Shown: in pieces, positions 3,916 through 48,446 of the stretch | How the letters are laid out: every line of letters starts with the position of its first letter | How positions within the stretch are numbered: position 1 is the stretch's first letter | DNA from: Eledone cirrhosa | Taxonomy: Eukaryota | DNA: 64,000 nucleotides | Direction of reading: 5' to 3' | Assembly (NCBI GenBank): GCA_964016885.1 | Contig: OZ024744.1 | Location: 93,620,001-93,684,000 of the forward strand | Translations under genes and position numbers: made by a program | The notes under the pieces: model-generated | Database searches by the model: none | What the model saw: the letters and a program-made list of their open reading frames with translations, nothing else | What the model was told of the DNA's origin: nothing

Positions 3916-4687
3916 CAATGTGTACTTCTCTCTATATGTTGATTTATAAAGAACTCGGAATCTATTCCTTGAGCTAATTAAATTATACGGAATTAATGTG
4001 TTTTTAACTTTATTTTTTAATTTGTGTATAAATATATATAAAGAGAATAACTTGAAGTTGGAAAAACTGAAGAAAAGGTAAGAAATATATAAATATATGG
4101 AGAAATATATAAATATATTTGGAAGCATAAGAATGAAAATATGAATAATGCGAATTGAATAAGGAAAAATGTGTACATATGAATACAAAGATAAACAACA
4201 TTAGTCGCCATAATGCAGGTAACTCTAATGATTAGCTAATAACTATAAATAATAGTTGAATATATTGGGTAAAGTCAGGGCCGGATTTAGACTTTGAGGG
4301 GGCCCGGGGCACTTCTGTTTTTTTTGGGGGGGGGCATCTCATATACACAAAATAATTAGAATACACAGCAAACCCCAATTTTACATATCAAAGTCAACTT
4401 GGTGCAAGTAATTGGAATACAGGTATTAAATTAAAAATAATCTAACCATCTTAAAACTACAAAGCTCATCAGAAGGCACAAATATATTGCTACATCTGTC
4501 GCCACTGGGGCCATCCACTGGAGGGGGCCCAGCGCAATTGCGTAAAGTTACTCCTGCAGATGAAAAAAAGGTCGACACAGATGTTTTGTAGTTTTCTGCA
4601 TTGTGGCAATGGAGAATATATTTTTTAAATTTCTTAATACTCCGTAAGACAATGAATCTTGTTTACACACACATATACATATATATA

Positions 4688-4905
4688 TCATCATCATCAT
4701 CATCGTTTAACGTCCATGTTCCACGCTTGCATGGGTTTGGACGGGGGTAGTCCCACTTGAGGCAAGAGTGATTGTCTTGCTCGCATAGGACTGTCTGGCG
4801 GGTTTTCTACGGCTGGATGCCCTTCCTAACACCAACCACATTTACAGTGTGGGTCTGGGAGGTTTTTACCGTGTTGCCTACACGGTCACATTACAGCGTG
4901 GACTG
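4688..4905 (-). mobile_element. SINE family C, inverted copy of 1-223
   Basis: Near-identical reverse complement of the window start, with a (TCA)n tract. Confidence 0.75.
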
Positions 4906-5074
4906 TGTGTTTTTTTGTCGTGACACCTACACAACCTCATTTATTTCGGACTGGATGTTGTGGCACCAACATAACTTTACATTGAAAGGGGCGGTGTGGA
5001 TGGGGTGGGGGTGGTGGGACGGGGGTGTGTTTTGTTAGAGATGCCTACTGACTGCAGTAGGTTTTACTTTGTAT

Positions 5075-5427
5075 TTAGGTAAGGCGGGTCTTCTCTATTA
5101 CTGAGTACCGCCAAAGGTCTTGGTCCAGTGACATTGTCTTGGAGAGGTGTAAGTGTGTGAGGTCGGAGTTTATCAGGTCGTCCCAGGTTTTTCTGGGTCT
5201 GTCTACTCCGTGGCTACCGTCTATCTTTATTGCCCTGCACTTTTTTATACAGCTGTCGTCTTTCATGCGCATCACGTGACCATACCAACGTAGCCTTCTC
5301 TCGAGTAAACAACATATGATCCCTCTTATTTCTAATTTTTCCCTTAGTTCGTTTATGCTTTGCCGTTCACGTATATTACTATTGCACATCCAGCGGAGCA
5401 TGCAAGCTTCGTTCCTCTCTAGTCTGC

Positions 5428-5428
<1 letters not shown>
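5075..5428 (-). mobile_element. RTE LINE ORF2 C-terminal fragment
   Basis: LERNEACMLRWMC...RRLRWYGHVMRM...RPRKTW; ends at a (TA)n tract. Confidence 0.85.
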
Positions 5429-5481
<53 letters not shown>

Positions 5482-5496
5482 TTATATATATATATA

Positions 5497-5562
5497 TATT
5501 GTTATATTTTGGGAGGGTCATGTTGCCAATAAAACCACACGCACCTCTGGTTTTTACTTCAA
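5497..5562 (-). mobile_element. Displaced piece of the Penelope-like terminal repeat
   Basis: Matches 24542-24609; its continuation resumes at 20135. Confidence 0.75.
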
Positions 5563-6149
5563 TCTCCTTATAATATATAACCACCAATTTCTCTGTTTGT
5601 CTGTCCGACAGTGGAAACACGTGCGTGCATTCGAATGTTTTTTGCGCACGCATAGAGAGAGAGTGAGAGTGAAAGAAAGAGACAGACTACGAGAGGGGGA
5701 TAGCGGGAGGGAGAGAGGGAGAGAGAGAGAGTGAATAGACGCTAAAACACGTGCGCGCGTGCGAATGTTATTTGCGCCCGCGTAGAGAGAGAGTGAGAGT
5801 GAAAGAAAGATACAGACTACGAGAGGGGGATAGCGGGAGGGAGAGAGGGGGGAATTGAGGAGTGCTACAGAAACATATATACATTTCTGTGTGTGTGTAA
5901 TATATATATATATATACACACACAGAAATATATATATATACACACAGAAATATATATACATTTTTGTGTGTGTAATAAATATATATATATATACACACAC
6001 AGAAATATATATACATTTCTGTGAGTGTAATATATATATATATATACACTATACACACACACACACACACACGCACGCACACACTGCGTCATAATGTCGT
6101 AATGCAGACATGCCGACATACAGACAGATCTTATAAGGGTGCAACGTTA

Positions 6150-8375
6150 TCTCCTTATAATATATAACCAGCAATTTCTCTGTCTGTCTGTCCGACAGTG
6201 GAAACACGTGCGCGCGTGGTTGCTATCTCTCTCTCTCTCTCCAGCTATCCCTCTCTTTTAGTCTGTCTGTTTCTCTCACTCTCACTCTTGCTCTTTGTAA
6301 CACACTAACATTCCTCCCCTCTATCGCTGTGACGAATGAGGAGATGGAGGAGGAGGAGGAGAGAGTCATTTCGTCACTTCACCTCTTCCTTTCTTTCTCT
6401 CCCCTCTCACTCCCTCATTACGTACAGACATTAGGGCGGTGGATTGGCAGAATCTGTAGAGAGTCGGACACCATGCTTCATAGCATGGAGTTACGTCCCT
6501 TTACGGTGTGAGTTCAAATAACGCCGAGGTTAACTTTGCCTTTCATCCTCACGGGGTCGATAAAATAAAGTACCAGTAATGTACTGGATAATTGCTGGCC
6601 TTGTGCCAAAAGTAGAAACAATTATTAGAAACATTGCTTCATTTTTACATATCTAAGCATTAGTAAAATAACTAATAATTTCAAAAGTAATTTTTCAATT
6701 CCAATTGTTATGAACAGCAAAACATTAATAGTAATTTTGTTCTAAGAAATATATATACATTTCTGTGTGTGTAATATATATATATATACCCACAGAAATA
6801 TATATACATTTCTGTGTGTGTAATATATATATATACACACAGGAATATATATACATTTCTGTGTGTGTAATATATATATACACACAGAAATATATATACA
6901 TTTCTGTGTGTGTAATATATATATACACACACACAGAAATATATATACATTTCTGTGTGTGTAATATATATATATATGTATACACACACAGAAATATATG
7001 GGAATTTCTGTTTGTCTGTCTGTCTGTCTGTCCTTCCCTAAAACTCAAATATAGGTGCTATAGAAATATTACCTTCCCCTTCCTTTCTCCACTTTGGTAC
7101 TACCAAGAGAAATACTGTTGCTATAGAAACATTACCTTCCCCTCTCCACTGACTTTGGTCACTGAGGCCGAGGGAATCGCTGGTTGCTATAGAGACACCT
7201 TGCACAAGCCAGAAGTAACCAGTTCAAGGCGGTTCTGACTTGACACCATGCCAAGGACCATTTGAAAATATATTTCCATCGTTATATTATAACGTTTATG
7301 TATCATAACGTTTATATTTCCGTCACTAATCTCTTTTTCTCCTTTTTCGTTTTAACATATATTTATTTCAAAAATTTCACCGTATAGATAACATATATAT
7401 TTATACATGCATAAAAGACACACCGAGAGACGGTGAACATGTGGTGCCGAAAACATTTCTCATCCAAATCTCAACAATATCAGTATATACACTAGATTTG
7501 CTAGCAGAAAACCGGGTGGTTTTCTGCTAGTCTCCTTATAATATATAACCAGCAATTTCTCTGTCTGTCTGTCCGACAGTGGAAACACGTGCGCGCGTGG
7601 TTGCTATCTCTCTCTCTCTCTCCAGCTATCCCTCTCTTTTAGTCGGTCTGTTTCTCTCACTCTCACTCTTTCTCTTTGTAACACACTAACATTCCTCCCC
7701 TCTATCGCTGTGACGAATGGGGAGATGGGGGGAGGAGGAGGAGAGAGTCACTTCGTCACTTCACCTCTGCCTTTCTTTCTCTCCCCTCTCACTCCTTCAT
7801 TACGTACAGACATTAGGGCGGTGGATTGGCAGAATCTGTAGAGAGTCGGACACCATGCTTCATAGCATGGAGTTACGTCCCTTTACGGTCTGAGTTCAAA
7901 TAACGCCGAGGTTAACTTTGCCTTTCATCCTCACGGGGTCGATAAAATAAAGTACCAGTAATGTACTGGGTAATTGCTGGCCTTGTGCCAAAAGTAGAAA
8001 CAATTATTAGAAACATTGCTTCATTTTTACATATCTAAGCATTAGTAAAATAACTAATAATTTCAAAAGTAATTTTTCAATTCCAATTGTTATGAACAGC
8101 AAAACATTAATAATAATTTTGTTCTAACAAATATATATACATTTCTGTGTGTGTAATATATATATATATACCCACAGAAATATATATACATTTCTGTGTG
8201 TGTAATATATATATATACACACAGGAATATATATACATTTCTGTGTGTGTAATATATATATATATACACACACAGAAATATATATATATACACACAGAAA
8301 TATATATACATTTCTGTGTGTGTAATATATATATATATACACACACACAGAAATATATATACATTTCTGTGTGTG

Positions 8376-8428
<53 letters not shown>

Positions 8429-8974
8429 GAAATATATGGGAATTTCTCTGTTTGTCTGTCTGTCTGTCTGTCTGTTCTTCCCTAAAACTCAAATATAGGT
8501 GCTACAGAAATATTACCTTCTCCTTCCTTTCTCCACTTTGGTACTACCAAGAGAAATACTGTTGCTATAGAAACATTACCTTCCCCTCTCCACTGACTTT
8601 GGTCACTGAGGCCGAGGGAATCGCTGGTTGCTATAGAGACACCTTGCACAAGCCAGAAGTAACCAGTTCAAGGCGGTTCTGACTTGACACCATGCCAAGG
8701 ACCATTTGAAAATATATTTCCATCGTTATATTATAACGTTTATGTATCATAACGTTTATATTTCCGTCACTAATCTCTTTTTCTCCTTTTTCGTTTTAAC
8801 ATATATTTATTTCAAAAATTTCACCGTATAGATAACATATATATTTATACATGCATAAAAGACACACCGAGAGACGGTGAACATGTGGTGCCGAAAACAT
8901 TTCTCATCCAAATCTCAACAATATCAGTATATACACTAGATTTGCTAGCAGAAAACCGGGTGGTTTTCTGCTAG
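6150..8974 (+). repeat. Tandem duplication of a ~1.4-kb non-autonomous Helitron unit (6150-7530, 7531-8974)
   Basis: Both units begin TCTCCTTATAATATATAACC, end TTTTCTGCTAG, are near-identical, and carry a family B SINE (6436-6627; 7817-8008). Confidence 0.9.
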
Positions 8975-9373
8975 TCTCCTTATAATATATAACCAGCAAT
9001 TTCTCTGTCTGTCTGTCCGACAGTGGAAACACGTGCGCGCGTGCGAATGTTTTTTGCGCACGCGTAGAGAGAGTGAGAGTGAAAGAAAGAGACAGACTAC
9101 GAGAGGGGGATAGCGGCAGGGAGAGAGGGAGAGAGAGAGAGTGAATAGACGCTAAAACACGTGCGCGCGTGCTTATGTTTTTTGCGCACGCGTAGAGAGA
9201 GAGTGAGAGTGAAAGAAAGAGACAGACTACAAGAGGGGGATAGCGGGAGGGAGAGAGGGAGGAATTGAGGAGTGCTACAACATATATACATTTCTGTGTG
9301 TGTGTAATATATATATACACACAGAAATATATATATATACAAACAGAAATATATATAGATTTCTGTGTGTGTA

Positions 9374-9404
<31 letters not shown>

Positions 9405-9481
9405 GAAATATATATACATTTCTGTGTGTGTTATGTATATATATACTAGCAGAAAACCACCCGGGGGCGGTTTTCTGCTAG
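8975..9481 (+). mobile_element. Short non-autonomous Helitron unit
   Basis: TCTCCTTATAA head, GA/TA microsatellite body, CTAGCAGAAAACC..GGTTTTCTGCTAG end; similar to 5563-6080 and 10138-10712. Confidence 0.75.
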
Positions 9482-9699
9482 TCTATATATATAAAACAGA
9501 AGATGTCCGTCTGCCTGTCTGTGTAACCGCATGCATTTCTACATTTTACAACCGGTTTGCACCAAATTTCATACATAGGTTTCTGAAGTCATATTACGCG
9601 TCGGAGGCTATTTTATTTTCATATATATTTTATTTTTTAATTTATATTTTTATTTTTATATATATATATACATATATCTATCAATCTATATACATATAT

Positions 9700-9882
9700 A
9701 ATTGTTTCTACTTTTGGCACAAGACCAGCAATTATTCCATTGCATTACTGGTACTTTATGTTATCGCACCCGTAAGGATGAAAGGCAAAGTTAACCTCGG
9801 CGGGATTTGAACTCAGAATGGCAAGGGCCTTAACTCTATCCGTGGTGTCCAACCCTCTACCGATACTGCCAATCCCCCGCCA
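9700..9882 (-). mobile_element. SINE family B
   Basis: Reverse complement of the family B consensus. Confidence 0.85.
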
Positions 9883-10137
9883 TCATATATACATATATAA
9901 TGCTAGTGTGTTGTTACATAATCCTAACTTAAGCAGGCATAGTTTCATGAGACAATATTTTGCATTTAAGCAAAGATTACACAAGAAACATCGTTAAGTT
10001 GTTGATATGTTTCAATGAGAGACACGTCCATTATGGTGTGTGTTTGCTTAGCATATAAGAGGATTTCCTCTTAAAGAACTCCAGCTAAGAGATTCTCTAG
10101 CCCCTTTTCTCTTTACTTCATCATACGTATTTCCTCA

Positions 10138-10282
10138 TCTCCTTATAATATATAACCAGCAATTTCTCTGTCTGTCTGTCCAACAGTGGAAACACGTGCG
10201 CGCGTGCTTATGTTTTTTGCGCACGCGTAGAGAGAGAGTGAGAGTGAAAGAAAGAGACAGACTACGAGAGGGGGATAGCGGC

Positions 10283-10368
<86 letters not shown>

Positions 10369-10605
10369 AAGGCTAAAACACGTGCGCGCGTGCTTATGTT
10401 TTTTGCGCCCGCGTAGAGAGAGAGTGAGAGTGAAAGAAAGAGACAGACTACAAGAGGGGGATAGCGGGAGGGAGAGAGGGGGGAATTGAGGAGTGCTACA
10501 GAAACATATATACATTTCTGTGTGTGTGCAATATATATATATATACACACACAGAAATATATATATATACACACAGAAATATATATACATTTCTGTGTGT
10601 GTAAC

Positions 10606-10636
<31 letters not shown>

Positions 10637-10712
10637 AATATATATACATTTCTGTGTGTGTAACATATATATATACTAGCAGAAAACCAACCGAGGGGCG
10701 GTTTTCTGCTAG
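10138..10712 (+). mobile_element. Short non-autonomous Helitron unit
   Basis: A|TCTCC head, palindromic CTAG terminus, expanded (GA)n tract. Confidence 0.75.
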
Positions 10713-12794
10713 TCTATATATATAAAACAGAAGATGTCTGTCTGTCTGTGTAAGAGATACTCTAGCCCCTTTTTCTCTTTACTTCAACCTACGTATTTCA
10801 TCATCTATATATATAAAACAGAAGATGTCTGTCTGTCTATCTGTCTGTGTAACCGCATGTATATTTTTCCGTACATCGATTGTGTGTGTGGGGGGGGGGG
10901 GGGGGGGGCAGCCAGGGGCAGATAACCCCCTTAAGCCTCTCGCTTGGAGTCAGCAGTACTACTGCATAAAGGCCCCATCATTCCTGCAGTTTGCCTCCCA
11001 TCTTCACCAAAATTAATCTTTTGTTTGCTTATGGCCTACAAATAAATTTGCAGGCATGTACTTGCGCAGTAAACCGACTTGATCAATGTTGAAGTTAATA
11101 TCATCAATGCAACAAAACATCATAACTGCTTGAATTCGTGTTTGGTTTTCACGAAGCGAGACGTATTGGTTACCCATGGCTTATGAAGGAAGGTGAACAC
11201 ATGAACTTTTACTTGAACTTATCAAGGGGGCCCCCGGGGCTGGGATGGGGAGTAAGCCCCTTCGACTTATCTATTAAAGTTCACATTAACACTGTATTAG
11301 TACCTGATAACTTTTGAAGTTTACGTTCGATTTTAACTTTACCGGACACATTGGTTACCCATTGCCTAAAGATGATGTTGAAGACACTGTCTATACCCGG
11401 AACAATCAAGGGGACCTCCAGGAGGCAGTAAGCCCAGGCGAGTCATTTATTGAATTTGACTATTGTAATGCAGCAAAGCGTCATAGCTTCGATAATTGGT
11501 AATCCAATAAAATGAGTTTCGACTTAGTTGTTATTCATGTACTACAGATGAAGATACAGTGAGTGAGGCACATTTACTTTCATTTCAATTCAGCAAGAGG
11601 ACCCTCTCGGGGACAATGAGCCCAGTTCATTAACCTATAAAGTTCCAACTGCCACAATAAAAAAGCACCATAACTTCGGGAGTTTATACTTGATTCTTAC
11701 AAAAACTAAACAAAATGGTTATTGTCTGCCATAAGATAAAGCACCACATTCGTTATCACTTGAATTTTACAAGAGAACCCTCTAGGGAGGGCAGTGAGCC
11801 CCTTTGGACCACTTTTAAAGTTCATATTATGGTTGCAACAAAGCATTTCAACTTCTGGAAATAAAAGTCAATTTAAACGAAAGTTGATGCATTGGTTACT
11901 CATGTTCTACAAATGGAGTAGCGAATTTTTAAATCCCTCTGACTTAACTTTAGTTTGTTTAGTTAACTTTAGGATGATTGAATTTAAGTTTGCACTCGGT
12001 TGTCTCCCCCGTGTAATTGCACCACAATTAAATGCGGAATGGGGAGTTACATTTTTTTCATTGAACTTTGGCGTCATTTCACACTCCTAACCAAGAAAGC
12101 TCGATTTAACCCAGGTGTAAATTTTAACGCCTTCTGTATGTGGATTATGCTATTTCACACTCATGCCTAAACTGTGCGAATGATTGATTAGTTTTTGCAC
12201 CCGGTTGTCTCCTCCGTTTAATTGCACCTCAATTAAGTGCGAAATGGCGACCTCTGGCCAACCACACATCAGTGAGTTGTGTTCAGTAGATTTCGTCATA
12301 CTTATTTGTATTATCTAACCAATCAGACAACTCGAGTGTTGTTCATTGAGCGAAATCACTCCTATTTATATCGGTCAAGTCCGACCTAGGATCACACTTC
12401 TTTTTTGGCTTTTGACAAGGGGTAGGTTTTTTTTACATGTGTACTCTCATAAGCTACCCCATGTTTCTGAAACGCATGCTTCTTCAACATTTGTCACCAT
12501 AAAGGAGGTTTAGTTAATGTGTTTATGGTCATAAGGTTCCAGTTTATCATGCTGTGATTTTTCGGCCATTTTTGCCTGTATCCTTTCAATGGTTAGTACT
12601 TACTTATTGCTATGTTCGAACTGAACCAACATACTGACACTTATATACCTACCACTGTAGCCACACTATTTAATTTCCTTTATCACAGGTAGTCCGTACG
12701 CTCCGTTGCCCCTAACTTAAAACCTGAAATTTGACTGGTACACAAAATCTTGCAAAACATACCCCCTTTCTAAGACCACATTTATCACATTGAC

Positions 12795-15450
12795 TGTGGA
12801 CGTCCGTGGCCAACGCCTGGTGGATGACATCACCGGTTTTTCAATTCGTGGCCGGAAAGCTAATGCTCCAACAGTCAGCCCCATATTCTTCATCGCTGCC
12901 GCTGGAGATGCCTAGCATTCGTTGTTAGGTTCTTTCCCAGAGCTCACCGATGGAAATTTTCGAGTCACTGAGCCAACACACTCAACTGAACATTTCATTT
13001 CCACCACCAGTGCTCCAGTGTTTTCGCGTCCACGCCGCTTACCTGCGGACAAATTAAAGGCAGCACGGTCCGAGTTCGACCATATGCTGCAGCTGGGCAT
13101 TATTCGCCCATCTACCAGTCCTTGGGCTTCACCGTTACACATGGTGCCCAAGACTTCCGGCGACTGGAGCCCCACTGGGGATTATAGAAGGTTAAATGCT
13201 ATGACCGTCCCGGATAGGTATCCCATTCACTATCTCCAGGATTTTGCATCTTCACTGCAGGGGTGTAAGATTTTCTCAAAACTAGATTTAGTGCGAGCTT
13301 ACCACCAAAATCCGGTCAGGAAGGAGGATATTCCGAAAACGGCGATTACAACTCCTTTCGTATCCTTCGAATTTTTGACCAGCGGTTCATAGACGAAGTC
13401 ACTCGTGGTCTGGACTTCGTTTATGCATACATAGACGATATTCTCGTCGTTAGTTCCTCTCCGGAAGAGCATATGCGCCACATGCATCTCTTATTTCGGC
13501 GACTTCAGGATTACCTCGTTCGTGTGAATCCCGCAAAGTGTGTTTTCGGTTCCACTTCGCTAAATTTTTTAGGCCACCTCATCGACGCCGAAGGTATTAG
13601 GTCGCTCCCTCAGCGAGTTCAAGCCATACAGGATTTACCTCCCGCCTACTACACTTCACCAGTTGCGTCACTTCTTAGGTCTAATCAATTTCTATAGGCG
13701 TTTCGTTCCTCATTGTGCTAATTTGCTATCTTCCCTTACTGACATATTGAAAAATCGTCGTAAGAAGAATGAGGATATTTCCTTGACACAAGGACAGCTT
13801 CAAGACTTCCAGACTGCCAAGACAGCACTCGCTAGTTCATCTTTGCTAGCCCACCCGATACCAGAGGCCAAGCTTTCGCTTTGTGTTGATGCATCTGATA
13901 CCGCTGTGGGAGCAGTTTTACAGCAGTCCAACGTTGGAAACCAACAACCTTTGGCATTTTTCTTGAGATAGCTGAAACCAGCAGAAACGCGTTACAGCAC
14001 GTTTGGGCGGGAATTATTAGCCATATATCTGTCGGTGAAACATTTCTCTCACATTCTTGAGGGGAGAAATGTTACTGTTTTAACCGACCACAAACCTCTG
14101 ACCTTCGCTTTGAGGGCTAAAGCCGACAGATATTCGCCCAGAGAGACAAGGCACCTGGACTACGTTTCGCAATTTACAAATGATATCCAGCACATTGCTG
14201 GCTCGCATAACATAGCTGCAGACGCATTGTCACGTTTGCCAATCAGCTCCATCTCGTCATCCCAGGAGATCGACTTAGGTCGTTTAGCTGCAAACCAACC
14301 TGCACTCCAATCGTTGGATACTCTTTCTGCCGAATTTGCAACTTGCATCTTCAAATATCTGCCCTTGTCGACCACCGACAGGCAGATTCTATGTGATGTA
14401 TCTACGGATTCACCACGACCACTTGTTCCTGAGACTCACCGTCAAATTGTGTTCCTTGCTTTGCACAACATTTCTCACCCAGGATCTTCTGTCACAGTAA
14501 AGCTCATAACAGCCAGATTCTTCTGGCCAAATATGAGGCGCGATTTACTGCTTGGTGCCGTTCCTGCATCGCTTGCCAGAAATCGAAAATCCATAAACAC
14601 ATCCGGACTCCGCTTGGTACTTTCAGTTCTCCTGATCCTCGGTTTCAGCACATAGACATTGACCTCGTTAGACCTTGGCCATTCAGCAGTAGATATTCGT
14701 ACCTCTTGACCTGTGTCGATCGCTTTTCGAGATGGCCTGAAGCCATCCCCTTACAAGATATAACTGCTGAGACTGTAGCACTTGCCCTGGTATCAGGGTG
14801 GGTTACCTGCTTTGGGGTACTAACTACAGTCACCACAGACCGTGGTAGACAATTTGAGTCTCATCTCTTCTCTGAGCTCACAAAGAACATTGGCACACAA
14901 CGGATTCGGACCACAGCCTATCATCCTGCTTCAAACGGAATGGTGGAACGATTCCACCGCCAATTAAAGGCCGCTCTTCGCGCCTATCCAGACTTTCAAC
15001 GTTGGAGCGAGTACCTTCCTATTGTGTTGTTAGGAATTCGGTCATCAATAAAGTAGGACCTTGGGTTCTCCCCGATCGAATTACTGTATGGTGCTCCTCT
15101 AGCGTTGCCTGGGCAAATTCTTGCCCCTGTTGATCTTGCTTTCCAGGACCCTGTTTCCTACGTATCTCGTTTGCGCTCCTATCTTCAGGACTTACCGCCC
15201 ATGAATACTAGGAAACAAACTGTTAAAGCTGCAGTCCCGAGGGATATTGCCTCGTGGACACATGTATTCGTCAGAAACGATGCGGTTACTCCACCCCTCA
15301 CGCAACCGTACTCTGGACCCTACCTTGTGTTAGCACGTACTGACAAACATTTCACTGTAGACATTAAGGGGTCCAGAGAGACAATTTCGGTGGATAGACT
15401 AAAAAGGGCATACAATGATGCTCATACACCTGAGCCACAAATACCCCAAT
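12795..15450 (+). pseudogene. Ty3/Gypsy pol (RT-RNase H-integrase), disrupted; gag and 5' LTR absent
   Basis: [93 protein letters not shown]; several stops and frameshifts. Confidence 0.95.
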
Positions 15451-15723
15451 CTTTCTTCTTGTGCATACACCTGCTCCTCCTGCCCCACCTTCACCTACAT
15501 ACAAGACCACGACCCGTTCCGGTCGAAGAGTCCACTGGCCCAAAAAGTTCTGCCAAACTATTTTCATGTGAACTGCCACTGGAGCCTTATTTTTTTTGTT
15601 TTTCTCGTTATTGTATTACCATGTACCTTCTCGTTACCATTTCATGCCTGTGTTGGGAGCCCATGCTTGTGGGTTCGCTACACTTACCTTCGGGCTTTTC
15701 GCCTAGCGTCTGGAGGAGGGTAC

Positions 15724-16106
15724 TGTAGCGGCCCCTTACGGCTGTGATTCAGCACGTATGGGAGTTGCGTCCCTTTACGACGGTCGTAACTCAGCACGTA
15801 TAGGAGTTACGTCTTTTTGCGACAGGCGCGACCCCCATTGGCAGATTCATGTACTAAATGGAGTTACGTCCCCCTGGGTACTATATATTTGAGGGCTGCC
15901 AAGGCATAAGCCTCTCTGGCATCCTGAACTTTGAAGGGACAAGAACACCTGAGACCTTGTCAAGAGATGACTCCTGTCTCACTTCCTTCGCCAGCCAGAA
16001 GAAGAATACCGGCAGCCTAAAGAAATACTTGAACACCTCCAAGAGAAGATTTCTGTTCTTCTCTACACACTCCAGTCTGGGAGTTGTGACCAACTGAACA
16101 TCTACA
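15724..16106 (+). mobile_element. Gypsy 3' LTR
   Basis: Polypurine tract GGAGGAGGG (15712-15720) followed by TGTAG...CTACA inverted termini, downstream of the integrase. Confidence 0.75.
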
Positions 16107-16239
16107 TGTGGTAACACATTATTTATATTAATTTATTTGACTTCTGTGAAGTAAAACCTTGTCACAACTCTCACCTGCATTTATTGTCATTCTTGATAAT
16201 ATATATATATACACTGATACTAATATCCTAAAGGACAAT

Positions 16240-19200
16240 TCATTCAACCAGCTACACCGTTCTCAGGACCTTTTCCAACAATTTGCTGTTGATATGGCCG
16301 TTAAAATGGAGTCCGAGATTAAATTAAATCAAAAGAAACTTCGATCTGAATGCTACATTCATCTACGCGATGGAATTAACAACGACGTATCCCCAGACAA
16401 TTTAGGGCAAGTGTGTATTTTGCCTTCAACGTTCACAGGGGGACCCTGATACATGCACGAGAGGACTCAGGATGCCATGACTTACGTAGAACATTATGGG
16501 CCGCCCATAACGTTTCATAACGTTTACATGCAATCCCAAGTGGAAGGAGATTACAAACGAACTGTTCCACAGTCAAGCGCCAAGGCACAGCCACGATCTC
16601 ATAGCAAGAGTGTTTTGCCTGAAATTATCCCAATTAATGGATTTATTAAAGAAAGGACAGGTTTTTGGGCCTGTCAGATGCGACATGTACACGGTTAAAT
16701 GGCAGAAACGAGGGTTGCCGCATGCCCATATCTTGATTTGGTTGGTGACAAAAATCAGTTCAAACTACATCGACAAATTTATTTCTGCCGAACTACCTGA
16801 TCCGTAGATTGACCAGGACCTCTTCTCTATAGTCACATCAAACATGGTCCATGGTCCTTGCGGACATGGACTCAATATGACGTCCCCGTGCATACACGAC
16901 GGAAAGTGTACAAAACGATATCCCAGGCCGTTTTTACAGCAAACACAGACTGGCGGTGACGGATATCCGTTGTATAGGTGTAGGAGACCTGAAGACGGTG
17001 GATTCACAGCAAAAGTTGGCGAACGCGAAATCAACAACAGCTGGATAGTGCCATATTGCCCCCTCCTTTTGAAAGCGTTCAACGCCCATATAAACGTCGA
17101 ATTTTGCAACTCAGTAAAATCAATTAAATACGTTTGTAAGTACATAAACAAGGGATCAGATGCTGCCGTCTTTGGTCTTCGTCATGAAAACAGTAGAGAC
17201 GAGGTATCTGACTACCAAGCAGGCCGATACATTAGCAGCAATGAAGCCTTTTGGTGCATTTTTGGCTTCCCACTGCACCAACGACACCCTGTCATTAAAC
17301 AACTTGCCGTTCACCTTGAAAACGGTCAACAGGTGTATTCCAACAATGCAACAGCTGCTCAGCTAGCGATCTCACCAAAGGAAACTACACTCACTGCTTT
17401 TTTCAAACTTTGTCAACACGACAACTTCGCTCGAACTCTGCTGTATTCTGAAATACCGTCTTACTATACATGGAATCAGACAAAATGGCTACGAAGGAAG
17501 GTAGGGCAAGAGGTGGTTGGATATCCAGTCATCAAATTCGACTATTGTCTTGGGTGAGTTTATACGGTCCACCCTACCCAACACGAATGCTTCTACCTGC
17601 GACTTCTGCTTCATGAGGTGAGAGGGCCGACCAGCTTCACTCATCTGAGAACCGTCGATGGATACACCTGCGGAACATACAGGGAAGCCTGCTTGAGGCG
17701 TCGACTTTTAGAAGATGATGCACAATGGGATGCAACCTTGACGGAAGCTGCCATCTCACAATCATCCCGTAGTCTAAGGGCAGTTTTTGCTATCCTCTTG
17801 CACGTCTGTGAATTGAGCGATCCTTACTCTTTATGGCAACAATTTAAAGATGATTTCGAGACGCATATAGACGTCTCGCTCAATTGCAATCTCCAAACTT
17901 AGATGAGGCTTTTCAGACGCTATATATAACAGAGCTCTGATCGATATTGAAGACAGAGTGGCTTCATTGGGCGGAGATATCTTGGAGAAATATGGGCTTC
18001 CGCAAACACTTTGAGATGCGCCATCTGACATTCCCAGCGACATTATACGTGAAACGTCATATGATGTCGACGAACTCAAAAGGTATGTTGAAGAAAATGA
18101 ACCAAAACTTCTAATGGATCATAAACAAGTCTACAACATTGTTGTTGATTCCATCCGTAATCGGGGAGGGGGTATATTCTTCCTGGATGCACCTGGGGGC
18201 ACGGGAAAAACATTTGTAATCAAACTTTTACTCGCTGCAGTGAGGCAACACGGAAACATCGCATTGGCCGTGACTTCTTCCTTTGCTGCCTGGTGGCAGG
18301 ACGGCCCATTCTGCCTTCAGTCTTCCTCTCAACGTGGCATCATCTGAGACTCCCACGTGCAACATCAGCAAGTCTTCTGGAAAAGCACTGGTGTTAAAGC
18401 GTTGCCTACTAATTGTTTGGGACGAATGAACAAAGGCCCACAAGGCGGCTTTCGAGGCATTAGACCGGTCACTCAGAGACATCAGGGACTGTCAAGAACA
18501 AATGGGAGGTGTCACTTTCCTGTTATCTGAACACTTCCGACAGACTCTGGCTGTAATCCCAAAAGGTACGCGGGCTAATGAGGTTGGTGCATCTCTGAAG
18601 GACTCCCCACTTTGGCGTTATGTAAGAAAGCTGACGCTTACAACAAACATGATAGCACAACTGCAAGGTGATGAGACATCAGCGGGTTTTGCTGCTGCCA
18701 TTTTGCCGTTGGGAGATGGCAAAGTCCTACTCAACGGAGATGGTGCAGCGGACCTCACAGGGATGTGCAGATGCGTTAAGTCAATTGCTGAGTTACGGAC
18801 GTCTGTTTTTCCTAATCTTGAGGAGAACTACACAAATCAAGTGTGGTTGTGTGAACGCGCAATATTGGCTTCGAAAAACCACATAGTTGGAAACATCAAT
18901 GAACAGCTCATGTTGTGCTTGCCTGGAAACCTGCATGTCTACAAGTCCCTTGACTCTATGGCTGATCCAGACGAAGTTGTTAATTACCACCACATAATTT
19001 CTTAACTCCCTAGATCCTCCCGGATTGCCACCACACTCTCTGCGACTTAAGAAAGATGCCCCTGTCATGCTCCTCAGGAATTTGGAGCTCCGAAGGCTTT
19101 GCAGCGGCATGCGTCTGGTCGTCCAAAAGGCAGTGCCTCATGTTATTGAGGCAACAATACTTACAGGATGTGGTAAGGGGGATACTGTCTTCATACCAAA

Positions 19201-19459
19201 GATACCTCTCATTCCATCCGGTAAAGACATTCCTTTCACATTCAGAAGGCTGCAATTCCCTCCCCGGCTCAGTTTCGCCATGTCGATTAACAAATCACAG
19301 GGTCAGACGCTGACGGTCGTAGGACTTAATTTAGAAAAACCGTTCTTCTCCCATAGTCAACTATATGTTGGCTGCTCTCGAGTGGGGAGCCGACATAACC
19401 TATTTGCTTTTGCAACTCGCGAGAAAACCCAAAATATAGTCTATAAAGAAGTTTTGTAG
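16240..19459 (+). pseudogene. Helitron Rep/Pif1-helicase, N-terminally truncated and disrupted
   Basis: LPSTFTGGP, WQKRGLPHAHIL (HUH), KYVCKYINKG (Y2), FLDAPGGTGKT (Walker A), [22 protein letters not shown]. Confidence 0.95.
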
Positions 19460-20107
19460 GCACCCCATCCGCCAACAAGTAATCGGTTTTTTTTTTTGTA
19501 TAAGTGCTTACATTTGCTGTATCCATGTGCTATTTTTGTTCTTTTGACAATACCACGTACGCCTCTGAGGTTGCTTTTGCTATACGTTATAAATGTTCAA
19601 TGTCTCCGTTTTCCGCATTTTTATGTTGCTATTACGCTAGGCTATCGATGTTCCGTAGTTTTAACCTAATTGATCTACTTTTCTCTACATCTTATTTACA
19701 CATTTTTTTGACATTCCAGCGTGATCTTGCCAAGGGCGTTTTTGTGGCCACCGACAGTTACATGCTTTTCTAGGTTACAATCTCAAATAACAAGCAAAGC
19801 AAATACGACACACCAAAGTGGTGTAAAGGACTTCTTAAGGGCCACCACCTCTAATCGGAGTCTTCTTTGCTGACAGCTCTGCCGCTGGGACTTTTAAGAG
19901 TGAACGATCCAAGGCCCTCTTTAGGGCCACCAAGTTTAAATTGTTACCATCGGATTCATCTTTGCTGGCAGCACCGTCGCTCACATATTTCAAAGTGAAC
20001 GTTAAAAGGTCCTCTTCAGGGCCACCAACTATAAATTGTTACTTCTATAGTCGTGTTTAACGGCAGTCTTTCGGTTCATTTGAATGACTACTCCATTGAG
20101 AGTTATA

Positions 20108-20134
20108 CCGGGCAACACCGGGTACCTCTGCTAG
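20108..20134 (+). terminator. Helitron 3' hairpin and CTAG terminus
   Basis: CCGGGCAACACCGGG-TACCTCTG-CTAG|T. Confidence 0.85.
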
Positions 20135-20202
20135 TTTATTATAAATTTCAGTTGGTTGGTTGGTTAGTTCGAAAACCAGGAAAGGAAGGTTGTTTATATA
20201 TT

Positions 20203-20233
20203 GTCAAAGCCCTTTCATGACATCCTCAGTGAC
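20203..20233 (-). ncRNA. Candidate minimal hammerhead ribozyme in the Penelope 3' repeat
   Basis: Minus strand GTCA-CTGAGGA-TGTCAT-GAAAGGGCTT-TGAC: 4-bp stem I, core, very short stems II and III. Confidence 0.5.
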
Positions 20234-22984
20234 TAGGTTTTTATTTTGTCTCTCCTTTATTCTGTCCTAGATCATCTCGTTTTTGTGTGTTGCGTGCTTA
20301 GATTGAGCATGCGTTACATTGTGTGTGTATTTTCATTTATTTATTTATGTGGTTATTTACTTGTTCTATCTGTGTGCGTCTGATTTGTTTTGTTAGTTTG
20401 GTTTTTGTGTGTATCTGTATGTCTTCATTTTGTCCTTAATTACTAGTTGTGACGTTGCTATTCCACTCATTCTCTAATGTGCCCCTATGTTCTATTTTGG
20501 CATGTTGGTGGAGTACTGATGAGTTTTTCCCATCCTGGGGTTCTCGCTAGTATTCACTTATCCTTTCTCCTATGCTACGGGCTGTTTCACCTATGTATGT
20601 TATGTTCTTATTCCTACACTGTCCCCTAGTACATATTATGCTATATACTACGTTCCTAGTTGTGCAGTTAGTGTGCGGGCTTAGCTTGCAGACTATGCAT
20701 TTCCTATCAGCACATGGCGATCTTTGAAATGGGTATGTTTTACTAATTAGGGTTTTTATGGGAATACCTGGTCTTTCAACTATCTTAATATTTAATTTAA
20801 GCTTGTCTAGGGCCCTTCTAAATCTGTAAGCTAGTTAACTTCTAGGGGTTGTATTGACGAACATTACACTCTGGTATTTATTGCTATCATACCAAGAGTT
20901 TATTTTATTTGTCTTATTCCTAATCCTTTCTATTGTTCCAAAATTGCTCTGTACATGGGGCAAGTCCCATTTGCATCATTTTCTACAACCTTTGCCCATT
21001 TGGTTCTGGCTCCTTTATATACCCTGATCTTGTGTCTCGGATTGTAGCCAGAGAATTGCATGATGTGGTGGATGAAGTGTTGTATGTGTCTCTTTAATTC
21101 TTTAGGATTGCACATGCGGAACACGTTCCTCATCACTCTTACTAAGTCCGCAATAAGTATGTTGATTTTTATGTGATCCGAAACAGCTAAGTTTCGGTGG
21201 ATCAAGTACTTGGAGGTCATGGGTTTAGCATAATGCGAATGAAGGATATGTGTTCTATTACTAATAGTTTCCAACCAGAGTTCTGTGTCTAGTACGGTTA
21301 ATCTATAGTTGGGGTGTTTAGTTGGGTAGTCTATAGTAACTTTAATACTCTGGTGGATGGAGTTAACTAATTGCTGGATGCTTTCCATGGTGTTGTTCTC
21401 TAATTCCTAACTGTTCTCCTGTGGGTGGTTTTTACTGCGATATTTATGTCATCTTCATAGCGGGAGTACATAGTCAGGGTTATAAAATTGTCTTCTAATT
21501 GTTCTTTAAGTCTTCTGTCCCACCATACCATAAAGAGGTTAGCTATGTCACCTGCAATGCTAACGCCAATGGCTGCTCCCTTCCCTCTTCTTGGGCATAT
21601 GTTTTGCCATTAAACTTGAACATATGTTCCTTAAGGGTTAGTTTTATACTGACCCCCCACCACATGTGTGATTATCATGGTTTTCCGGGGTCTGTATGGC
21701 TCTGGTCTAACCGCTCCATCTTTATTTGTGGGACTTCTTGGCCATTGAAGTAATAGTGGGTGGTCTGCCTCTCTCTGGCCTTGTGGAGCAAAGGCTTCTG
21801 AAGTCAGGTGTGTCTAAATAATCCTTATTGTGTGTGAGTTTAAGTAGTAGTCCCAGCTCACTTGTATCAATTCCACGGAATTCAACATCGCTCTCACTGA
21901 TCATTTTTATGCATTTTTCCACAGCAAAATCAACGTCAATGGATGGGTATAGGGACACTACATCTCCATGCTACCTATTGTACAACCTGTTAGGTCCCTA
22001 GACAGGTTGCATTCGTTGATTCTGCTGAGGAGGTCCTCCGTGCTGTCGCATATATCTGGAGACATTTCGATAATAGCGCGTATGATCAGGGAGAGGAAGT
22101 AGGAGAGTCTGTAGTTGCTAGCAATGTTAGCTCCACAGACTGGCCGTGCTGGTGGTCCTGTGACTGGGTCACTATTTGCCTTGTGGTCTTTGTGAAGCCC
22201 ATACAGCGTTGATACATTGTTGTTTCAGGCCTGGAAGTTGTTGGCAGTCCGTTTATTAGGCTGCATCATCATATATGAGCGTTGAGGGTTTTTTCCCTTT
22301 CCTCGTGCTCTTGTGGTGTTACTTCTCTTGTGTTGATGATGTGGGGTTGCATTTCTTGGAAGTAGCTTGGCAGGCTGTCAGCTGACATTCTGCCAGATTT
22401 GTCTGTTTGGATAGCATACAATCTCTCCATTTCATGAGCGCCGCATGAGTTTACACAAGCCATTTGTGGATTCCCCCCCCCCCCCAATTGCTGGACCTCC
22501 ATTCTATTCTGTTTCCTGCTATGTTGTTCTAGAATCTTTTTAAGTTTAGTTCTGGCTATTGTAAATTGTGCCTATGTTTGGTCATCAGCTTGTTACGGTA
22601 AACCCGATCGTTTGTTAAACCAAAGCGACATAGGGTAAATTCGTTGCATGTCATGTCGAAGGACTTATCAGATGGGTCATAGAGGTAGAACTCCAGGGTG
22701 TATTGTTTACTATGTTGTTATTTCTACTTCCACCAACAGCTTCATGGTTGCTCTCATTGTTTCTCCTGTCCTTTCCCTCTGTGTCACTTATTTTCTAATC
22801 TATTTCGTGTCTGTGTGTTCATCCTGGTTTTGTCATTGTTTTCTCTACCTCTCTCATTGTTGTTACTGTCCCTTATCTCTGTGTTACTGTCATTTTCTAA
22901 CCTGTTTTCTGTGTCTGTTGTTGTTGGGATGTGTATTGTGGTGGAAAGCATAGTATGTGTTGTGTGTGTTGTTATTATTCAGTA

Positions 22985-23148
22985 TTGGACGCCATACTTT
23001 GCAGCATAGAGTTACGTCCCTTTATGTTCTGAGTTCAAATCCCGCCAAGGTTAGCTTGGCTTTTCATCCTTACGGGGTCGATAAAATAAAGTATTAGTTA
23101 TGCACTGGGATAATTGCTGGTCTTGAGCCAAAAGTAGAAACAGTTATT
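22985..23148 (+). mobile_element. SINE family B inside the Penelope element
   Basis: GAGTTCAAATCC...GATAAAATAAAG...GTAGAAACAG. Confidence 0.8.
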
Positions 23149-23356
23149 GTTGTTTGTGTTGTTATTGTTGTGTGTGTTGTTGTTATCGTTGTTCGTGTTG
23201 TTATTTTTGTTGTTGTTTTTTAGTCTTCATCGTATTTTTGTAAATGTTTTTTCTATCTCAGATAAGCATTCTGTCATATTTACCTTACTATATGTGGCAT
23301 ATTTAGGTAGTAACTGTTGGATGGACAGTTCGTCAGGATCTAAGCTAGTGTTACCA

Positions 23357-24026
23357 TATATATTTGTGTTGTTGTTGTTGAAATCGTCTATTAATGGGAC
23401 ATCTTGCCATATATATTTGTGTTGTTGTTGAAATCGTCTGTTAATGGGGCATCTTGCCGTATATATTTGTGTTGTTGTTGAAATCGTCTGTTAATGGGAC
23501 ATCTTGCCGTATATATTTGTGTTGTTGTTGAAATCGTCTGTTAATGGGGCATCTTGCCGTATATATTTGTGTTGTTGTTGAAATCGTCTGTTAATGGGAC
23601 ATCTTGCCGTATATATTTGTGTTGTTGTTGAAATCGTCTATTAATGGGACATCTTGCCGTATATATTTGTGTTGTTGAAATCGTCTGTTAATGGGGCATC
23701 TTGCCGTATATATTTGTGTTGTTGTTGAAATCGTCTGTTAATGGGACATCTTGCCGTATATATTTGTGTTGTTGTTGAAATCGTCTGTTAATGGGGCATC
23801 TTGCCGTATATATTTGTGTTGTTGTTGAAATCGTCTGTTAATGGGACATCTTGCCGTATATATTTGTGTTGTTGTTGAAATCGTCTATTAATGGGACATC
23901 TTGCCGTATATATTTGTGTTGTTGAAATCGTCTGTTAATGGGGCATCTTGCCGTATATATTTGTGTTGTTGTTGAAATCGTCTGTTAATGGGACATCTTA
24001 CCGTATATATTTGTGTTGTTGTTGAA
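23357..24026. repeat. 50-bp minisatellite, ~13 copies
   Basis: Unit GCCGTATATATTTGTGTTGTTGTTGAAATCGTCTGTTAATGGG(G/A)CATCTT. Confidence 0.95.
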
Positions 24027-24655
24027 CTCGTGTTTATTCCATCAAGCTTATCTGGGTATTTCTCTCTATTTTCTGAAGTTTCTTGTTTTAGTTTCATCTG
24101 TTTGGGCCACGTTAATTTCTTGTTAAAATATTTGTTGCATTTCTGGATGATGTATTTTTCTTCTTCGTGTATAATATTTATCTATTCTCTTTTTCTCTTG
24201 GTGTAGTGATCTTACTTATTTCTTGTATTAGGTTACCCTTTCGTTTTTCTTGTTGGTTTAATTCTAAGTAAATTTTCTTTTTTATGTTTAGAATCAGTGT
24301 TCGTTTGAGTCTATCAGCTTGTCTTTTGCTGAGTTCGAGTCTTCTTACATTGGTGTTGATGGTGTAGGTGTAAACTCTGGACGAGGTACATTGTTTTATG
24401 AAGTGAAGTTGTCGAGTTGTTTTCTTTAGACAACAGAACATGGTGGTTTTCAGTAACTTGTTAGCCTGGCTAAGGTTTACGATACATCGTTTTCGAATTT
24501 GTTGTGCAAGATTTCTTGTGTGAAAACATGTGTTGAAACAGATATTGTTTTACTTTGGGAGGGTCGTGTTGTCAATAAAAACACACGCACCTGCTTGTTT
24601 TCACTTCAATTTATTATAAATTTCCTGTTGGTTGGTTCGATGAAGTATATATATA

Positions 24656-24857
24656 TAGGAAAATGTCCAGGACCCCGACGGCAGAGCTCAAGCCGTTTCG
24701 GCGGCTATTTCTGGAAAGCGTCCAGAAATAGCTGTCGAAACGACTTGAGCTCTGCCGTCGGTGTCCTGAACATTTTCCTATTACCCACTCTACTACCCAA
24801 AGTATCGAGTACTCTGGTGCGTTATGGTCCACCTGGTTCCTTACCACACTTCCTTCG

Positions 24858-25022: not shown

Positions 25023-25124
25023 TATTATTCAAAATATTAACAAATGAAAAATATTCTCATAATCAAAATCTATATATATTTTGATTATGAGAATATTTTT
25101 AATTTGTTAATATTTTGAATAATA
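25023..25124. repeat. AT-rich palindrome
   Basis: TATTATTCAAAATATTAACAAA...TTTGTTAATATTTTGAATAATA around a short TA spacer. Confidence 0.8.
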
Positions 25125-39639: not shown

Positions 39640-40320
39640 TGACAAAAAGTGTCCAGTTCGCCTTGGAAGTTGGTAGCACTGGTGCCATGACAAAAAACAT
39701 CCAGCCTGCCCTGAAAGATGGTTGTACTGGTGTCACAACAAAAATCAGCCCATCCACTCTGTAAGTTGGTAGTGCTGGTGCCATGACAAAAAACACCCAG
39801 TCCACCCTGTAATGGGGTAGTGCTGGTCCCATGACAAAAAACACTCAGTCTACCCTGTAAGGTGGTAGTGCTGGTGCCATGACAAAAAACACCCAGTCCA
39901 CCCTGTAATGGGGTAGTGCTGGTCCCATGACAAAAAACACCCAGTCTAACCTGTAAGGTAGTAGTGTTGGTGCCATGACAAAAAACACCCAGTCCACCCT
40001 GTAATGGGGTAGTGCTGGTCCCATGACAAAAAACACTCAGTCCACCCTGTAAGGTGGTAGTGCTGGTGCCATGACAAAAAACACCCAGTCCACCCTGTAA
40101 TGGGGTAGTGCTGGTCCCTTGACAAAAAACACCCAGTCTAACCTGTAAGGTAGTAGTGCTGGTGCCATGACAAAAAACACTCAGTCCACCCTGTAAGGTG
40201 GTAGTGCTGGTGCCATGACAAAAAAAAAACACCCAGTCCATCCTGTAATGTGGTAGTGCTGGTCCCATGACAAAAAGAAAACACCCAGTCCATCCTGTAA
40301 TGTGGTAGTGCCGGAGTCAC
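39640..40320. repeat. 48-bp minisatellite expanded inside a SINE
   Basis: Unit GTAGTGCTGGTGCCATGACAAAAAACACCCAGTCCACCCTGTAA(T/G)GG; followed by a SINE-type tail ending (TGA)n at ~40490. Confidence 0.9.
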
Positions 40321-44201: not shown

Positions 44202-44891
44202 ATGTGTGTATATGTATATATATATATGTATGTATATGTATATATATATGTATGTATATGTATATATATATGTATGTATATGTATATATATATGTATGTA
44301 TATGTATATATATATGTATGTATATGTATATATATATGTATGTATATGTATATATATATGTATGTATATGTATATATATATGTATGTATATGTATATATA
44401 TATGTATGTATATGTATATATATATGTATATGTATATATGTATGTATATGTATATGTATATATGTATGTATATGTATATGTATGTATGTATATGTATATG
44501 TATATATGTATGTATATGTATATATATATATGTATGTATATGTATATATATATATGTATGTATATGTATATATATATGTATGTATATGTATATGTATGTA
44601 TATGTATATATATATGTATGTATATGTATATATATATGTATGTATATGTATATATATATGTATGTATATGTATATATGTATGTATATGTATATATATATG
44701 TATGTATATGTATATATATATGTATATGTATATATATATGTATATATATATGTATATATATATGTATATATATATGTATATATATATGTATATATATATG
44801 TATATATATATGTATATATAATGTATATATATATATATGTATATATATATATGTATATATATATGTATATATATATGTATATATATATATG

Positions 44892-44931
<40 letters not shown>

Positions 44932-45196
44932 TATGTATATATATGTATATATATATGTATATATATATGTATATATATATGTATATATATATGTATATAT
45001 ATATGTATATATATATGTATGTATATATATGTATATATATATATGTATGTATATATATGTATATATAGTATATTATATATGTATGTATATATGTATATAT
45101 ATATATATATGTATATGTATGTATATATATGTATATATATATATATATATGTATATATATGTATATATATGTATATATATATATATATATGTATAT

Positions 45197-45254
<58 letters not shown>

Positions 45255-45421
45255 GTATGTATATATATGTATATATATATATATATATGTATATATATGT
45301 ATATATGTATATATATATGTATATATATGTATATATATATATATATGTATATATATGTATATATATATATGTATGTATGTATATATATGTATATATATAT
45401 ATGTATGTATGTATATATATG

Positions 45422-45461
<40 letters not shown>

Positions 45462-45572
45462 TGTATGTATATATGTATATATATATATATGTATGTATGT
45501 ATATATATGTATGTATGTATATATGTATGTATATAGATATATATATATATTATATATATATGTATATGTATG

Positions 45573-45605
<33 letters not shown>

Positions 45606-45903
45606 ATATATGTATATATATATATATATATGTATGTATATATATGTATATATATATATATATATATGTATGTATATATATGTATATATATATATATATA
45701 TGTATGTATATATATGTATATATATATATATATATATGTATGTATATATATGTATATATATATATATATATGTATATATATGTATATATATTATATATAT
45801 GTATGTATATATATGTATATATATATATATATGTATGTATATATATGTATATATATATGTATATATGTATGTATATATATATATATATGTATGTATATAT
45901 ATG

Positions 45904-45934
<31 letters not shown>

Positions 45935-45972
45935 GTATGTATATATATGTATATATATATATGTATATTATG

Positions 45973-46005
<33 letters not shown>

Positions 46006-46014
46006 GTATGTATA

Positions 46015-46085
<71 letters not shown>

Positions 46086-46129
46086 GTATTATATATATGT
46101 ATATATATATATATGTATGTATATATATG

Positions 46130-46180
<51 letters not shown>

Positions 46181-46212
46181 GTATATATATATGTATATAT
46201 ATATATATATGT

Positions 46213-46246
<34 letters not shown>

Positions 46247-46549
46247 TATGTATGTATATATATGTATATATATTATATATATATATATGTATATATATGT
46301 ATATATATATATAGTATGTATATATATGTATATATATATATTATGTATATATATGTATATATATATATTATGTATATATATGTATATATATATATATGTA
46401 TGTATATATATGTATATATATGTATGTATATATATGTATATATATATATGTATGTATATATATGTATATATATATATGTATGTATATATATGTATATATA
46501 TATATGTATGTATATATATGTATATATATATATATTATGTATATATATG

Positions 46550-46582
<33 letters not shown>

Positions 46583-46611
46583 GTATATATATATATGTAT
46601 GTATATATATG

Positions 46612-46642
<31 letters not shown>

Positions 46643-47130: not shown

Positions 47131-47179
<49 letters not shown>

Positions 47180-48250: not shown

Positions 48251-48281
<31 letters not shown>

Positions 48282-48446
48282 ATATAGTATATTATGTATA
48301 TATATGTATGTATATATATGTATATATATGTATGTATATGTATATATATATGTATGTATGTATATATATGTATATATATATATGTATGTATGTATATATA
48401 TGTATATATATATATGTATGTATGTATATATGTATATATATATATG

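Follow-up and report, generated by a model that had tools for sequence, protein, structure and literature searches.

The 14.6-kb insert at positions 5563 to 20134 of the window analysed here (64,000 nucleotides of Eledone cirrhosa, contig OZ024744.1, positions 93,620,001 to 93,684,000) is most likely a stack of at least six Helitron pieces and one retrotransposon fragment that piled up at one spot. We consider it highly probable that a composite Helitron of a family here called HelA came first, into a Penelope-like element, and that Helitrons of a second family, B/C, later landed base-exactly at its TC left ends. Since an arrival at A/TC (slashes mark junctions) leaves an outer A/TC...CTAG/T, such a stack mimics a single element. 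Taken alone, the locus is a nested pile of an ordinary sort; the habit of the B/C family to settle at the first base of other Helitrons extends well beyond it. The pieces (U1, B1, B2, C1, C2, HelA and a Gypsy-type fragment) are located in Table 1.

The left flank runs ...CTTCAA to 5562, where the insert begins with TC, and CTAG at 20131-20134 closes the insert before the flank resumes with TTTATTATAAA at 20135. The target is A/T, a target duplication is absent and the insert reads A/TC...CTAG/T, junctions that the first-pass annotation had described in the same way. Its claim that the joined flanks rebuild an uninterrupted Penelope repeat was borne out as well, the coordinate-joined flanks aligning through the join, in register and with 0 bases gained or lost, in 30/30 fetched repeat copies. 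These copies (one of which is the window's own, at 24542-24640) came from a search with the repeat at 24530-24645, of whose 1571 candidates the best 40 were scored. Because the query was the intact copy, the loci are uninterrupted by selection, and the test shows only that no base was gained or lost at the join. At two other loci, L115 and L108, a further Helitron seemed to have entered this Penelope site, but inspection showed otherwise. Public sequencing runs (best sharing 0.13-0.23 of words) yielded short contigs, mostly at 90-95%, none of which crosses a junction.

Eight TC left ends lie in the insert, five of the B/C family (5563, 6150, 7531, 8975 and 10138) and three of the HelA family (9482, 10713 and 10804), together with five CTAG right ends (7530, 8974, 9481, 10712 and 20134). 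The outer TC and CTAG, which had been read as the canonical ends of one Helitron, are both there, but they belong to different families, because other genomic copies define HelA from 9482 to 20134. Tandem units, a Gypsy piece and Rep/Hel had also been named in the insert, and all are present, the last two with Pfam matches. The reported SINEs (short interspersed elements) stand as SINE-like repeats and not as local insertions: they are cargo of the tandem-unit family and are also present in locus L122.

Evidence for growth in place comes from P94, a sibling composite on C28 at about 94.05 Mb, about 430 kb away and inverted. P94 carries the left flank of the window (4355-4679) at 1.5% divergence over 323 sites and joins the same Penelope end directly to the 9482 left end, with 5563-9481 missing; the first 3.9 kb were therefore probably added in place. 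The first-pass annotation had also proposed a look for other genomic copies with the same internal order, and none was found among 29 HelA 5', 29 RepHel, 29 B 5', 28 B 3' and 19 long terminal repeat (LTR) loci. The nearest sampled copies of the parts diverge to different degrees, by 24/260 sites (9%) for the Penelope-like host, 4.2% for HelA, 18/505 (3.6%) for the Gypsy LTR, and 8/506 and 8/591 (1.4-1.6%) for B1. Of the two options originally offered, accumulation at a single site thus stands, and one large rolling-circle unit is unsupported, because the P94 junction lacks 5563-9481, the order is unrepeated and the parts differ in age.

Several observations weigh against growth in place. The RepHel body of P94 lies 3.6-9.7% per segment from that of the window and does not group with it as its closest kin when 35 RepHel bodies are placed in a tree, so that P94 dates and records the 5' junction only. 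The 5' boundary of P94 itself lacks a Helitron left end, and P94 could in principle have lost 5563-9481 precisely through a shared TCT. U1 and C1, at 3-6% to the few relatives compared, look older than the P94 split (about 1.3%). Each DNA search scored its best 40 candidates, and a second full copy is possible beyond them.

These points bear on the improbable alternative of a single move, in which the entire 14.6 kb between the TC at 5563 and the CTAG at 20134 had been put together at another place before it came here. Canonical outer ends and a clean empty site are what such a move would leave, and composites have moved in this genome: three siblings of the core exist, U1 and B stand together at L122 with a different flank, and composite Helitrons have been described in bats (PMC4224331). 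The same flank is nevertheless joined to 9482 in P94, the Gypsy-HelA junction was found nowhere else in the sampled loci, and, although Helitrons copy out, the nearest RepHel relative is 4.2% away as compared with 1.5% for B. Least credible of all the alternatives considered in this work is an assembly artefact behind the tandem units. The region is repeat-rich, with a 200-N gap at 49065, but B1 and B2 differ at 13 sites, the units have distinct interiors, and the type of joint recurs hundreds of times, also in raw reads of another sample.

Growth in place, our preferred reading, can be set out as a series of steps. The HelA composite (left end, captured DNA and full HelA) would have entered an A/T site with an AT-rich 3' side. 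A Gypsy insertion and a deletion, whose time is not fixed, would have broken RepHel. The inner left end would then have received C2, and the outer one C1, B and U1, after which B would have been duplicated in tandem. U1 has no CTAG right end of its own, and the junction between its inverted piece and the left end has six exact genome matches with three left-end variants; because of this recurrence we suppose that U1 formed the leading part of a composite whose other member was either B1 or C1. Between B1 and B2 there are 13 differences over 1097 compared sites, and both have lost the same 7 bp from the hairpin loop, a deletion absent from 28 top relatives and filled in reads of X6 and X7. The small difference and the shared deletion mark the pair as a probable local duplication or dimer.

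The HelA core is defined by its other copies, in 26/29 of which 9482-9619 continues to about 10912. The matches of these copies end at or before 12791 and pick up again at about 16230, running through RepHel to 20134, and the right end is the true end of the family, with CTAG/T in 27/29 other copies (counted from printed ends). HelA has the features of Helitron1, namely an HUH Rep fused to a Pif1 helicase (Helitron_like_N, PF14214; PIF1, PF05970; Pif1_2B, PF21530), a 5' TC, a 3' CTAG and insertion before T. In the window its RepHel is at 68% to full RepHel proteins, with broken frames, and its 3' end contains a CCGG-N6-CCGG motif that folds no better than shuffles (z -0.59). The captured segment at 9885-10137 has four close paralogs, all on the same chromosome and at 93-98%. 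Three of them are composites with a left end, captured DNA, a second left end, a HelA body and a right end, each with its own 3' flank, and none of the three holds C2 or the Gypsy piece; the fourth, L194, holds no Helitron. Because the three siblings share the order and differ in 3' flank, the core 9482-20134 minus C2 and Gypsy (roughly 7.5 kb) moved as a composite with captured DNA. The captured DNA in L193 and L194 has an inverted pair of SINE-like repeats, of which the window and P94 keep one arm. Seven HelA copies on G000:C28, at 92.6-100.5 Mb (L062, L241-L253), show a mosaic of derived sites in common with the window, the six others having 29-47 of 131 such sites and copies elsewhere at most 15. 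This pattern probably reflects local hopping, with gene conversion a likely contributor.

The Gypsy-type fragment shows the domains RVT_1, RT_RNaseH, Integrase_H2C2 and rve (Pfam). The order reverse transcriptase (RT)-RNaseH-integrase, the polypurine tract and the LTR (the 3' one only) are Ty3/Gypsy features; the 5' LTR and gag are missing, along with about 1.3-1.6 kb of HelA. None of the 29 other RepHel loci (0/29) holds the fragment, and no LTR match running on into HelA was found elsewhere among the best 40 of 621 candidates, which were scored.

The host of the insert is best read as a Penelope-like element, a label that goes back to the first-pass annotation and agrees with the layout of such elements. 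The stretch 5496-5562 plus 20135 onward is repeated at 24542-24640, in the manner of a pseudo-LTR, and tblastn places the host frames in the order RT then GIY-YIG. Domain scores lie under the Pfam cut-offs both for GIY-YIG in the window frames (E 0.016) and for the homologues of these frames (RVT_1, E 0.004; GIY-YIG, E 0.0002). HTH_animal occurs on 32% of members (an Atlas lead), and the best protein matches bear the name Octopus. No hammerhead ribozyme in the terminal repeat was present among the 150 Rfam matches listed (of 192); these amount to low-complexity, microsatellite-driven microRNA noise. A tandem array with a 50-bp unit (13.4 copies, 23370-24031) lies inside the element.

Table 1. 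Pieces of the insert and of its host element, with positions in the window
Feature	Position	Strand	Remarks
U1: left end of the B/C family, GA-rich repeats of 130 bp, microsatellite array, inverted stretch from another Helitron family	5563..6149	+	
B1: non-autonomous Helitron, TC start, terminal palindrome ending CTAG	6150..7530	+	
SINE-like repeat inside B1	about 6432-6627		
B2: tandem sister of B1	7531..8974	+	
C1: short B/C-family element, terminal palindrome flipped, abuts left end at 9482	8975..9481	+	
HelA outer left end; probable original 5' junction of the first insertion	9482..9619	+	
Captured DNA of the HelA composite subfamily, including one arm of a SINE-like repeat	9620..10137	+	
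C2: second C-type element, at internal HelA left end	10138..10712	+	absent from 3 sibling composites
Short local duplication: left end and preceding flank	10713..10803	+	10086-10180 matches 10751-10841
HelA inner left end and 5' non-coding part	10804..12791	+	88-92% to 29 other copies
Gypsy-type fragment with a broken pol, a polypurine tract and a 3' LTR	12792..16232	+	
Gypsy 3' LTR	15724-16232	+	
HelA broken RepHel frames: HUH motif HAH, two-tyrosine motif, Pif1 helicase	16233..19459	+	
HelA 3' non-coding part and canonical right end, CTAG at 20131-20134	19460..20134	+	
Last 67 bp of host Penelope-like element (left flank)	5496..5562	-	86% to 24542-24619
Remainder of host Penelope-like element: 3' untranslated region, broken RT and GIY-YIG frames, upstream terminal repeat	20135..24640	-	
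Host broken RT-like then GIY-YIG-like frames	20472-22650	-	read 22650-20472
Host upstream terminal repeat	24482-24640	-	repeats the element's 3' end
B/C palindrome, loci of both orientations	9446-9481, 10676-10712		also L174, L224, L233, L316, L330, L335, L336, L342, L348

Members of the B/C family have the features of non-autonomous Helitron1 elements, with TC after A, CTAG before T and no coding frame. Left ends follow A in 26/29 cases and CTAG in 3/29, and right ends precede T in 28/28, one of them reading ATAG. The B/C end is unlike that of HelA: a perfect stem of 13-17 bp includes the terminal CTAG (z -5.9 to -7.9), and the usual short hairpin set back from the 3' end was not found in the family. 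We regard this stem as a variant feature of an element that appears to work like a Helitron all the same.

Of the 28 closest B right ends, 27 run straight into a Helitron left end. So that similarity would not bias the choice, a further sample was drawn by exact matching of a 22-nt B/C end motif; the genome holds 830 such matches, and 680/830 continue with TCT, as against 2/30 canonical controls. In chromosome order, 70 of 71 B/C palindromes abut a Helitron left end (62 through the matched arm, 8 through the other arm, and the remaining one through neither), and under the same rule 2/30 canonical Helitron ends do so; the control ends are followed by T in AT-rich sequence in 30/30 cases. The 71 matches are those at the first 70 listed places, all examined and including two locus pairs that are local duplicates, and the control comprises the first 30 of 3057 canonical ends. 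The Helitrons capped by B/C belong to several families, and in another sample 135 raw reads, from an unstated number of loci, continue CTAG-TCT with ATATATATAAA. From the side of the hosts, 5/18 copies selected through the 3' end are capped by B/C and 2/18 by a canonical end (by reading), and 3/29 HelA 5' loci carry a B/C cap. This adjacency probably reflects a preference for insertion at the first base of other, older Helitrons. There are points on the other side: one B end (L313) sits at an ordinary target, and the left-end rule (looser, two-arm) was tuned on these data, an earlier and stricter rule having given 28/30 versus 0/30 controls, and 31/41.

Joints of the CTAG/TC type would also arise without any targeting, if B-plus-host composites were amplified together by means of the host's right end, and one identical B-plus-host pair, L228/L229, lies 5 kb apart. 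We nevertheless hold such co-amplification to be very improbable. Among 22 B-capped copies of the commonest host Helitron, the median B-B divergence is 1.5% (139 pairs), whereas the capped hosts are 8.6% apart (176 pairs), about six times as much. B thus seems to have landed on old residents rather than to have travelled with them. Capped hosts are as diverged from one another as from uncapped ones (7.5%, 100 pairs, 6 uncapped; all seven capped hosts and L229 were removed from the uncapped set), and B/C hosts as a whole come from many families. Joint amplification is further disfavoured because the host is more diverged than B in 110/110 pairs, without correlation between the two (rho 0.10, p 0.28), although a weak correlation appears when L228/L229 are included (rho 0.21).

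How B/C might find left ends can be sketched from what is known of RepHel, which nicks the left end and makes precise CTAG/TC circle joints, and which joins the strand into a nicked A/T target with an AT-rich 3' side (PMC4778049, PMC5876387). We lean towards a mechanism in which RepHel nicks the left end of a resident Helitron at A/TC, where it normally starts, and the nick then takes up the B/C strand; because RepHel already binds and nicks there, the resident left end can act as an acceptor. The long palindrome that buries CTAG would disfavour capture of ordinary AT-rich targets, and the buried CTAG would be handed over only to an activated (nicked) left end, a site that ordinary ends would seldom use and B/C ends nearly every time.

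Two other explanations take the stacking as real. In the main rival, another, autonomous Helitron would supply a RepHel restricted to targets that resemble left ends, and the palindrome would be incidental to the specificity. Target choice usually lies with the transposase and the genome has several RepHel families, which makes a dedicated RepHel conceivable, if doubtful; elements with quite different interiors, however, share the palindrome and the target. The regions upstream of 41 sampled palindromes yielded no RepHel that has a B-type right end, an absence that counts against a dedicated RepHel, though not decisively. RepHel matches upstream of the B ends at L317 and L328 have ends of their own and are therefore separate elements, and L335 and L348, considered as RepHel partners of B, are both capped host Helitrons. 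It seems to us unlikely, and less probable than a dedicated RepHel, that B/C is a Helitron that parasitises other Helitrons by means of a two-way palindrome picking its target in cis by base pairing. IS608 provides the model, a transposon that directs its targeting to a 4-nt site. The sequence just inside the B/C stem would then be a degenerate reverse complement of the left end and extend the stem into the target, as predicted folds show it doing. The computed extension is -1.75 kcal/mol for real targets versus -1.30 for control flanks (p 0.026, from non-independent values), too weak to count. If it were true, a short terminal sequence would suffice to direct a rolling-circle transposon of eukaryotes to one particular kind of site.

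CTAG stands at either foot of the B/C palindrome, which is present in both orientations, and its terminator probably works both ways, judging from this sequence pattern. At L174 (G000:C5 near 80.10 Mb), a B 3' end is inverted within a B microsatellite, an arrangement that looks like a precursor of the C type. L122/L308 (G000:C11 near 15.599 Mb), a B copy that contains a further left end of the B type close to its 3' part, is another family variant with several left ends.

Among known systems, Helitron1/HLE1 (Helraiser), with TC and CTAG ends and A/T insertion without duplication (PMC4778049, PMC5876387, PMC11417382), resembles the elements described here in its ends, its site, the lack of duplication, the AT-rich 3' side and, for the core, the HUH Rep and Pif1. 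Helraiser has a 19-bp palindrome 11 nt before its end, whereas the B/C stem includes the end, and Helraiser inserts at AT sites genome-wide, whereas B/C sits at the left ends of other Helitrons. Maize Helitrons prefer positions near or inside other Helitrons, and their nested copies give rise to several termini and new composites (PMC3288121, second-hand). There the inner 3' ends are decayed, whereas the inner CTAG ends are intact here, and, unlike the maize case, the B/C joint is base-exact at the 5' TC, cross-family and seen in 70/71 palindromes. The CTAG/TC joints are also reminiscent of the head-to-tail arrays of plants and bats, attributed to rolling-circle concatemers of one element (PMC5876387, PMC5148889), but the partner here is usually an older element of another family; B1-B2 alone fits a concatemer or a local duplication. 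In the compound HelibatN539, one copy's 5' end together with another's 3' end captures the intervening DNA (PMC4224331), which matches the 9482-20134 core only and not the whole 14.6 kb. Target choice beyond the AT dinucleotide, to which wheat Xuan-Feng inserts (PMC13286980), is likely for Paramecium Helitrons, which probably target telomeres (PMC13085455), and appears in Fusarium, where one FoHeli4 lies 2 bp upstream of another's 5' end (PMC5148889). In this respect B/C resembles these two and IS608, but their targets are telomeric repeats, a single case and a 4-nt site, and none of the three caps other Helitrons.

We found no report of left-end targeting in the open-access papers searched; relevant material may lie in papers under subscription (Xiong 2016, Thomas and Pritham 2015). 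The accessible parts of the O. vulgaris repeat paper (PMC13282606), of HELIANO (PMC11417382) and of the Xenopus paper (PMC12001565) do not mention it. A preference for neighbouring Helitrons is known from maize, and what these searches did not turn up is base-exact, cross-family and near-obligate targeting of left ends. Since insertion at A/TC rebuilds canonical outer ends, a clean empty site together with TC and CTAG does not prove a single event. The results bear on the target choice of Helitrons and on whether arrays come from concatemers or from targeted insertion, a question that can be tested by end swap because one genome holds two kinds of right end (70/71 versus 2/30). Left-end stacking is a possible route to multi-terminus Helitrons and to 5' captures, and because 5/18 sampled host Helitrons are already capped, annotation of such genomes will merge families.

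Some observations concern the surroundings of the insert. About 450 bp of the left flank (within 4355-5562) are duplicated in front of the HelA copy P94 (L241-L243), which may reflect one-sided conversion or a cryptic start. The stretch 4680-5437 is a dispersed repeat that the P94 copy of the flank lacks, so that it is likely a later insertion. Elsewhere, the window contains a degenerate (TA)n tract of about 9.9 kb (44209-54074) with the 200-N gap at 49065-49264, a tandem array with an 85-bp unit (54 copies, 96% matches, 58610-63195), another with a 48-bp unit (13.6 copies, 39653-40311) and a separate RVT_1 fragment (27495-28136, E 8.5e-09). Long inverted repeats at 1667-1796 (89%), 24655-24781 (88%) and 25023-25124 (96%) are likely to resemble miniature inverted-repeat transposable elements or to be Helitron-internal.

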